Positions 58,269-58,994 of a stretch of 64,000 bases of DNA are shown here, in pieces. Both the position numbers and the translations under genes were made by a program. The first letter of the stretch is position 1, and each line of letters starts with the position of its first letter. The notes beneath the pieces were generated by a model. It saw only the letters and a list, made by a program, of their open reading frames with translations. It was not told the DNA's origin and did no database searches. The DNA is from a virus: the IMG/VR virus record IMGVR_UViG_3300022562_001344, positions 1 through 64,000 of that record. One strand, written 5' to 3'.

Positions 58269-58775
58269 ATGGCTGAAATGACGATCTCCCAGGCCCTCCG
58301 CAGGATCAAGAAGTTGAAGGGCCAGCTCGCCGAAAACCTGATCCGGTCGCAGGCCGGCGTATCCTACCGGGTGGGCGCCCCTCCTGCTTTCGCGTTTACA
58401 GCGTCTGTTCAGAAAGCGGACGCAATTCGCCAGGAGCTCGTCCAGCTCGAGTCCCGTCTCGCTGTTACGAACGCGACGGCTCGGATCGATTTCCACGGAG
58501 ACTGTCCTACCATCGCGTTTGCTATTCGTCAGCTTCAGGAGCTGAAGAGCCAGATTGCTTGGTACAGGGCCTTGCCCGTCCGGGCACACGAGGAGACGTC
58601 CGAGGAGACCTGGGACTACGACGAGGGAGGGAAGCACGTCCGGACGCAGGTTCCGTGGAAGTGCGACCTTCCTGAGGAGAAGCGGGCCACCGTTGTGGAC
58701 GACCTTCAGGACCAATTCGACCGCCTCAACGACGCGGTCGAGAGGGCAAACCACGCCACGGTTCTCATGGCGTGA
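58269..58775 (+). CDS. Long helical-hairpin/coiled-coil protein (resembles the DIP1984-like family, from memory)
   Basis: MTISQALRRIKKLKGQL, LESRLAVTNA, TIAFAIRQLQELK, LQDQFDRLNDAVERANH; TATTCT + 6 nt + ATG. Confidence 0.8.
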   Translation: MAEMTISQALRRIKKLKGQLAENLIRSQAGVSYRVGAPPAFAFTASVQKADAIRQELVQLESRLAVTNATARIDFHGDCPTIAFAIRQLQELKSQIAWYRALPVRAHEETSEETWDYDEGGKHVRTQVPWKCDLPEEKRATVVDDLQDQFDRLNDAVERANHATVLMA

Positions 58776-58781
58776 AAGGAC

Positions 58782-58994
58782 GTGGGGCAGGAGGGCGAGC
58801 GCAGGAAGACCGGCGCGCCGCCAATGGCTTCGGCCTGAGGCAGCACCTCCTTTCTAAGGAGCTACAACGAACGCCACCGATACCCTAGCGGTTAGCGGTC
58901 AGACCATCCTTCAGCATTCAGCAATAAGCGATGAGGTCTGAGGCGTCAGCACTCACTAAAGCCGGTCCGCCCGTGCGGACCCTCCTGTCCCCAC
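58782..58994 (+). ncRNA. Putative structured RNA with a 7-nt periodic YNAG array
   Basis: GTGGGG/CCCCAC and CAGGAGGG/CCCTCCTG terminal stem; GACCGGC/GCCGGTC inner stem; cUUCGg hairpin; CTCCTT/AAGGAG hairpin; nine 7-nt units at 58885-58952. Confidence 0.72.

Follow-up and report, generated by a model that had tools for sequence, protein, structure and literature searches.

A stretch of viral DNA of 64,000 nucleotides (nt) (positions 1 to 64,000 of the IMG/VR record IMGVR_UViG_3300022562_001344, hereafter the window) encodes a helical protein of 168 amino acids (aa) and, directly behind its gene, a folded RNA built around a series of 7-nt units. Gene and RNA together probably specify an undescribed protein-RNA particle. 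The gene occupies positions 58269–58775 on the plus strand, and the RNA, termed here the heptad-platform RNA or simply heptad RNA, occupies 213 nt at positions 58782–58994 of the same strand, with its own 5' and 3' ends paired. Comparison with relatives shows a real, conserved RNA that is read from the sense strand, keeps a nearly constant number of units and is physically linked to the gene. The gene-RNA pair is widespread in uncultivated large phages.

The heptad RNA and its coupling to the upstream gene

The relatives of the window protein define the sample on which this account rests. A clustered protein collection holds 53 of them, of which 49 make up the alignment and profile A1. Searches with the A1 profile found 658 representative protein clusters at E ≤ 0.001, 190 of them at E ≤ 1e-30, and 101 loci were retrieved with it (16 viral, 5 from genome bins and 80 metagenomic; designated by L numbers), which together with the window give 76 distinct downstream stretches. 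The loci were recovered from metagenomes of sediment, soil, lakes and groundwater, and the proteins that they encode are 33–57% identical to that of the window. The G+C content of the loci with an array spans 29–68%, so the hosts are evidently diverse.

The array of 7-nt units follows the gene with great regularity. Among the 90 loci with at least 250 nt of downstream DNA (74 unique), an nhmmer profile of the array finds it behind the gene and on the same strand in 85 (69 of the 74 unique), lying 70–375 nt past the stop codon (median 146 nt), and finds no match elsewhere in 530 kb. In the five loci that the profile misses (L020, L046, L088, L096 and L097), R1, a sequence-only covariance model of the array core made from 24 RNAs, matches at the same place with weaker E-values; an array downstream of homologous genes, which the preliminary description had proposed to look for, is therefore what the two models return. 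R1 itself matches essentially once per locus, on the strand of the gene and just behind it, apart from three weak extra matches (E about 0.001) that lie upstream in L079, L081 and L084. In the window it covers 58862–58962 (64.3 bits, E 2e-18), the sole copy in the 82-kb record. Chance or slippage as the origin of the array is ruled out by its retention, with variable filler, in 85 of the 90 loci. Coding sequence is likewise ruled out, as a period of 7 is not a multiple of 3 and a stop triplet falls in about two-thirds of the units, judged by the base frequencies at position 2.

In the window, AG dinucleotides stand at 58887, 58894 and 58901 and again, in a shifted phase, at 58913, 58920, 58927, 58934, 58941 and 58948. 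By sequence and by alignment with relatives, heptad block 1 (58885–58905) consists of the three units CUAGCGG, UUAGCGG and UCAGACC. It is followed by a phase slip of 5 nt (58906–58910), compared with 1–2 nt in most relatives, and by block 2 (58911–58959), which has six units of the form U-N-A-G-N-N-N and a degenerate seventh, UCACUAA (58953–58959; TCACTAA in the DNA), where AC replaces AG. The nine AG positions on which an array of nine units had been proposed are all present, while the degenerate tenth unit, recognised by alignment, means that the array has 3 + 7 units around a 5-nt slip rather than nine. This is the only site in the 64 kb, on either strand, with a run of at least five AG at period 7, the next best run being four. 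Such runs occur in 45 of the 76 downstream stretches, and runs of seven in 21; the corresponding numbers for 1354 control windows taken from these loci are 3 and none. At periods 5, 6, 8 and 9, no run of five or more was found in the 76 stretches.

A logo of 412 units from 42 loci gives U (78%), N, A and G (both fixed), C (73%), N and N, so that positions 2, 6 and 7 of the heptad are free. This agrees with the proposal that phase and core are held constant and the other positions vary, and that recent slippage is not the source. The number of units per array in these 42 loci is 10 in 19, 11 in eight, 9 in seven, 8 in four and another number in four, and the usual layout is a block of 3–4 units, a slip of 1–2 nt and a block of 6–7 units. 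Four lineages (L025, L026, L098 and L002) carry an extra hairpin, short and rich in G+C, between two of the heptads.

The array is enclosed by a fold that begins 6 nt past the stop codon of the gene (TGA, 58773–58775). Its closing helix, P1, has a 5' arm at 58782–58814 and a 3' arm at 58961–58994, recognised from sequence, fold and covariation in relatives, and is made of four paired segments with internal loops: GTGGGG (58782–58787) with CCCCAC (58989–58994), CAGGAGGG (58788–58795) with CCCTCCTG (58980–58987; T 58988 is bulged), CGCA (58800–58803) with TGCG (58974–58977) and GACCGGC (58808–58814) with GCCGGTC (58961–58967). Inside it, hairpin P2 (58817–58844) is capped by a UUCG tetraloop with a GGC-UUCG-GCC core at 58826–58835, and hairpin P3 (58847–58861) reads CUCCUU-UCU-AAGGAG. 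A linker (58862–58884) with a CGAUAC motif leads to the array; the motif stands ahead of the array in most relatives (alignments A4 and A5). The minimum-energy fold of 58776–59000 (−98.1 kcal/mol, z = −4.36, equalled by none of 200 shuffles) returns every one of these pairings. The stem, the two hairpins and the 6-nt gap after the stop codon, all noted at first from the sequence alone, lie exactly where they had been placed. The sequence after P1, TTTAAT, is a weak U-run only.

Two further features of the 5' domain deserve mention. A (Y)GAYNN motif precedes block 1 in most RNAs in two to three copies about 6 nt apart, for example CGAUAC-UGAUAA (58862–58884 in the window; A4 and A5), and constitutes a second periodic element in the RNA. 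The P3 region (58843–58861) reads CACCUCCUUUCU-AAGGAG, which we take to resemble the anti-Shine-Dalgarno sequence at the 3' end of 16S rRNA; the aligned relatives do not conserve it.

Comparison of relatives shows that the element is read as RNA. A long helix formed by the two ends encloses the array in the minimum-energy fold of all 42 of the 42 best-scoring loci. In relatives this helix begins a median of 9.5 nt past the stop codon and the closed unit measures 168–320 nt (median 260). The preliminary description had also suggested that the stems be examined for covariation, and here a subgroup of seven sequences is informative: 96.2% of the cells of the 26-bp P1 alignment are paired and 9 of the 26 pairs are changed on both sides, values that none of 500 shuffles reaches. 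When the partner strand is slid by 1–3 columns, pairing in the same subgroup falls to 43–57% with at most two doubly changed pairs. A second, AT-rich subgroup of 12 sequences has compensatory changes at four pairs of a 9-bp helix core. In an alignment-free test, the 3' arm of the same locus is the best duplex partner of the 5' arm in 18 of 41 loci, and the first or second best in 25; the failures include loci whose helix begins past the 60 nt sampled. The 5' domains of 59 RNAs contain 106 tetraloop hairpins, of which 14 are UUCG and 31 GNRA, while the reverse-complement classes are represented among the same 106 by no CGAA and three UYNC. The restriction of UUCG and GNRA loops to the sense strand indicates an RNA and not a DNA site, and P1 covariation, the arm test, the sense-strand tetraloops and the inserted hairpins together establish a folded RNA read from the strand of the gene. 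Within the array, the 24 aligned RNAs have no conserved pairing (two trivial pairs, −0.35 kcal/mol). A single-stranded platform is thus supported by comparison of sequences, not by thermodynamics.

The RNA appears in no catalogue that was consulted. In Rfam 15 the window has no match at the gathering score and the RNA region none at E ≤ 10, RAGATH-27 (RF03100) included; at the same threshold the relatives L007 and L031 give nothing beyond snoRNA-type noise, and a scan of 40 loci returned no family overlapping the heptad RNA. As had been supposed from the first, no named family accommodates it, and by these comparisons it belongs to an uncatalogued RNA family.

The upstream protein, its neighbours and other heptad arrays

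The open reading frame (ORF) at 58269–58775 reads as it was first described, as a helical protein of 168 aa with two similar TIxxA(L/I)R helices. The Pfam family PF20935 (DUF6847) matches it with E 3.8e-5 and 24.1 bits, under the 27-bit cut-off, and the alignment runs end to end, with residues 13–165 on profile positions 8–140 of 141. The NCBIfam model DIP1984_fam (NF038048) gives 28.9 bits against a cut-off of 70. PF20935 is matched at E ≤ 0.01 by 38 of the 49 aligned relatives, with a best value of 1.3e-11. On this profile evidence the window protein is a divergent DUF6847/DIP1984-like family member, below both curated cut-offs. The residues that are invariant across the A1 alignment cluster in a basic N-terminal helix (R11, K15, K17 and G18) and among the Asn residues of helices 2 and 4. 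The ESM Atlas model of the protein is confident (pLDDT 0.84), and its nearest structural cluster, labelled 'Siphovirus Gp157 family' (TM 0.79), serves as a lead only. No solved structure of a relative was found by sequence or by family profile at E ≤ 10, and the HutP family is absent from the Pfam matches of the protein at E ≤ 1.

Searches of deposited genomes and of the literature added little. A tblastn search with the window protein gave no homolog among 50,697 deposited genomes of phages and 72,556 plasmids. A search for canonical DUF6847 genes in 300 bacterial genomes of one class gave just weak matches within long ORFs. We found no paper on the heptad RNA or on the function of DUF6847.

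A distant counterpart may nevertheless exist in phage T5. The family phrog_1491 matches the window protein at E 0.0092 and 32 of the 49 relatives at E ≤ 0.01 (best 1.1e-7), and the T5 protein T5.085 (labelled 'tail fiber protein') belongs to phrog_1491 over its full length (E 3.3e-82). Direct comparison of the profile with T5.085 is weak (hhalign probability 33%, over 38 columns), so the homology of T5.085 to the window protein rests on the PHROG link. Behind T5.085 lie 376 unannotated nt (L245:23130-23505, approximately 43,130–43,505 of NC_005859, minus strand) with an end-closed fold that begins 8 nt past the stop codon (z = −6.9). This gap holds a period-7 array of AA with units of the U-N-A-A type, and it lies 1.5 kb from the T5 cluster of tRNA genes and 'stable RNA of unknown function'. 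The heptad array profile has no match in T5. Sequencing of total RNA from E. coli infected with T5 is described for 10 min (PMC12483538). A T5 counterpart of the pair is plausible on these sequence grounds.

The genes around the pair vary from locus to locus. Across 76 loci the largest clusters of neighbouring genes cover only 14, 11 and 11, the commonest being an HNH endonuclease gene upstream (14), an RNA ligase gene downstream (11) and a gene for a TrmB-like regulator (11); no other gene travels with the pair. Stable RNA genes are frequent in the vicinity. According to Rfam, 16 of 40 loci (L004, L005, L007, L008, L009, L011, L015, L016, L045, L048, L050, L057, L058, L064, L066 and L072; for example L007:3814-4153) carry a full-length bacterial class-A RNase P RNA gene (251–308 bits) behind the heptad RNA and in the same orientation. 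In most of these about 40 nt separate the gene from the end of the array model; the gap is larger (104 to about 425 nt) in L008, L009 and L015. Two of the 40 loci (L017 and L041) contain a gene for tmRNA, and tRNA genes occur in seven. A context of RNase P RNA, tRNA, tmRNA and RNA ligase points to RNA metabolism rather than to a toxin-antitoxin pair.

The record behind the window is 82,276 nt long and its CheckV completeness is only 19%, so it represents a fragment of a very large phage; the source is a giant marine-sediment phage. Genes for a maturation protease and a major head protein (phrog_2522, E 1.2e-45) lie a few kb upstream of the 168-aa gene. No RNase P RNA gene and no tRNA gene was found in this record, which covers about one-fifth of the genome. 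A Cys-rich ORF of 72 aa on the minus strand (58996–59214) terminates 1 nt beyond the RNA. If this ORF is real, the RNA would sit between convergent genes; it competes with a plus-strand ORF at 59093/59246–59521.

Arrays of 7-nt units are found in other phages too. A scan for five perfect units returned more than 119 viral stretches, and the 80 that were fetched all lack the protein; they are simple 7-mer tandems or inverted array pairs, sometimes dozens per contig. Intergenic (TCAGCNN)n arrays occur in L131, L172 and L175 (one 34-kb contig, IMGVR_UViG_3300045936_000120) and likewise in L103, L104, L105, L109, L121, L122 and L133. Their layout is often array, short loop and reverse-complement array, dozens per contig and on both strands. 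These loci have no DUF6847 homolog, and the two arms differ from each other at their variable positions. A second scan gave more than 120 stretches of (C/T)AAGCNN arrays, flanked on one side by a Cys-rich ORF of about 200 aa and on the other by one with a conserved N-terminal motif, presumably that of a small terminase subunit. They have up to about 18 heptads with a slip after the third unit and are found in many marine viral contigs (L247–L322, for example L254:4490-4620). Their 185 tetraloops include nine GNRA and no UUCG, and they have the appearance of DNA sites. A function in packaging or at the genome end is possible, as they recall the 7-bp repeats that adjoin the terminal repeat of T7. 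Finally, in L114, L124, L126, L137, L142 and L159 about 150 nt separate a (TNAGCNN)5+ array from an ORF of 135–146 aa. In L124, L137 and L159 that ORF adjoins another of about 525 aa, which in L124 matches the terminase large subunit (phrog_2, E 1.4e-43); the array is a candidate pac site. What is diagnostic of the heptad RNA is its closing helix, its loops and its linkage to the gene, and not the rhythm alone.

A protein-RNA particle and its alternatives

The RNA would be transcribed as one unit with the DUF6847/DIP1984-like gene upstream of it. Its end helix of about 25–30 bp and its one to three small hairpins present a stretch of about 65–70 nt without conserved pairing, arranged as ten U-N-A-G-C-N-N heptads in which three or four units, a short slip and six or seven units succeed one another. 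The co-encoded protein would read the invariant A and G every 7 nt, much as HutP does on XAG-N4, giving a defined number of protomers per RNA, namely ten, or five if each of the two similar protein halves contacts one unit. Such an assembly would form a discrete ribonucleoprotein particle. We lean, with caution, towards direct and register-specific binding of the heptads by the product of the adjacent gene. It is the most economical reading because the count stays near ten, the coupling to one gene is complete and no other neighbour is conserved. With less assurance, the particle might serve the phage in the handling of stable RNAs or in translation, a role that is favoured because the pair sits among genes for RNase P RNA, tRNAs, tmRNA and RNA ligase.

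Several observations weigh against this reading. Arrays with similar heptad cores occur in phages where no homolog of the protein accompanies them (0 of 80 and 0 of 76 loci), and therefore a 7-nt AG or AGC rhythm alone does not require a DUF6847-like protein. The RNA without the gene was looked for only by narrow pattern scans, in which none was seen; two specific patterns returned contigs that bear the gene (L223, the contig of L010, and L190, the contig of L012) together with unrelated arrays, and broader array patterns were swamped by the other heptad arrays. No recognised RNA-binding domain was found in the window protein by Pfam and NCBIfam scans. In single sequences the array is predicted to pair nearly as readily as the rest of the RNA, with mean paired probabilities of 0.60 and 0.68. 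A U-run (at least five T in 8 nt) follows P1 in just 9 of 40 relatives.

A more ambitious version can be put forward tentatively. The ten 7-nt 'rungs' of the RNA might template a closed assembly of ten DUF6847-like protomers, or of five two-lobed ones, and the particle might work with the RNase P RNA, tRNAs, tmRNA and RNA ligase of the phage to take over or protect the RNA processing and translation of the host, with a distant version in T5.

It is unlikely that the heptads are read by another factor, be it a host RNA-binding protein, a nuclease or a different phage protein, with the RNA serving as a decoy or sponge and the gene merely co-expressed. Repeat-bearing sponge RNAs of the CsrB type are well established, and both the heptad cores in phages that lack the protein and the want of a recognised RNA-binding domain would fit such an arrangement. 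However, the coupling is essentially complete across proteins that share only 33–57% identity with that of the window while all other neighbours vary, the near-constant 10–11 units suit a fixed stoichiometry better, and the hosts are evidently diverse, to judge from a G+C content of 29 to 68%.

The short distance between stop codon and RNA, 6 nt here and 9.5 nt at the median in relatives, and the T-rich tail behind the stem in nine of the 40 relatives might suggest a cis-acting element in the 3' untranslated part of the upstream mRNA, such as a stabiliser, a processing signal or a terminator, that forms no stable particle. This is distinctly unlikely, since about 260 nt with ten constrained repeats far exceeds what a terminator or stabiliser needs, 31 of the 40 relatives have no U-run, and an RNase P RNA gene adjoins in 16 of 40 loci, an arrangement typical of stable RNA genes.

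The pair is very unlikely to be a toxin-antitoxin-like couple of the type III kind, with the repeat RNA neutralising a harmful protein, even though a repeat RNA does adjoin a small protein gene and the two move together between genomes. Type III repeats are of about 34–36 nt, lie upstream of the endoribonuclease gene and are cut by the toxin, whereas the units here measure 7 nt, lie downstream and accompany a helical protein. The neighbours are stable-RNA genes, and a defence-system scan (PADLOC) of four proteins gave no convincing match: three had none and the fourth, P0013, had a single weak one (PDC-S57, E 0.0056). A double-stranded DNA site of 7-bp repeats (iterons, an operator or a packaging site) is barely credible: 7-bp DNA arrays are known, for example the heptads of the omega repressor and the neighbours of the T7 terminal repeat, and some of the arrays described above lie upstream of small-terminase-like genes or beside a large terminase gene, but here a covarying helix links sequences about 200 nt apart, the tetraloop classes are sense-strand specific (45 versus 3, while the terminase-linked arrays have nine GNRA and no UUCG of 185), and the element keeps one orientation and one position relative to the gene.

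New conserved structured RNAs with a dedicated partner protein are seldom found, and the known ones, such as RNase P RNA, tmRNA with SmpB, the signal recognition particle and 6S RNA, are central machines. In the pair described here a unit count near ten is kept across very different base compositions, and an RNase P RNA gene often adjoins. If the protein does read the heptads, it would represent a second, independent solution to the 7-nt N-A-G recognition of HutP, and the pair would be a programmable scaffold of RNA and protein of a new kind. Experimental access would come from the possible counterpart in T5.

Comparison with known repeat RNAs and their proteins

The DIP1984 family, Pfam DUF6847, shares end-to-end similarity with the window protein and its relatives alike, and differs in that the window protein falls under both curated cut-offs. 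As for the RNA, GOLLD and ROOL are large, phage-borne, conserved structured RNAs near tRNA genes, of unknown function. The heptad RNA is comparable as a conserved structured phage RNA without assigned function in the vicinity of tRNA genes; GOLLD and ROOL are much larger, have neither a heptad array nor a dedicated partner gene and are in Rfam, where the heptad RNA has no match.

Analogies with CsrB-type and type III antitoxin RNAs had been drawn in the preliminary description. Both are made of repeated protein-binding units, as is proposed for the heptad RNA, but their defining features fail. The units of CsrB/RsmZ-type sponges are GGA motifs in hairpin loops, variable in number, and the heptad RNA has no such units; it differs from the type III RNAs in its 7-nt units, in its position downstream of the gene and in the helical nature of the protein.

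The TRAP ring, the other analogy drawn initially, fares no better in its details. TRAP reads eleven (G/U)AG triplets with 2–3-nt spacers, that is, at a period of 5–6, and its trp leader is a cis site. The likeness would lie in a protein oligomer that reads repeated AG-type triplets. The differences are that none of the 76 stretches here has a period-5 or period-6 run of five or more, that the protein is unrelated and that the TRAP site is a cis leader. HutP, which had not been named, is nearer.

According to the HutP study, each face of the hexamer binds three XAG units spaced by 4 nt, and their A and G are recognised (PMC2425495). The hut terminator RNA of Bacillus subtilis thus shares with the heptad RNA a single-stranded N-A-G core, a 4-nt spacer and a period of 7 (PMC2425495), and in the heptad RNA, too, A and G are invariant. 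HutP sites are described there as two blocks separated by a linker (PMC2425495), and the heptad RNA also has two blocks. The HutP oligomer takes one unit per subunit in that account (PMC2425495); that the heptad RNA binds protein at all is what we infer. By the definition that can be drawn from the same study (PMC2425495), the heptad RNA has N-A-G cores with 4-nt spacing in runs of at least three, while it has no HutP-family partner and no 5' leader overlapping a disrupted terminator. HutP has another fold, binds 3 + 3 units in a 5' leader and prevents termination, as described for hut (PMC2425495), whereas the heptad RNA presents about ten units inside a closed RNA of about 210–320 nt behind a gene, in phages. 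By analogy of core, spacing and block layout, the nearest known system is HutP, not TRAP.

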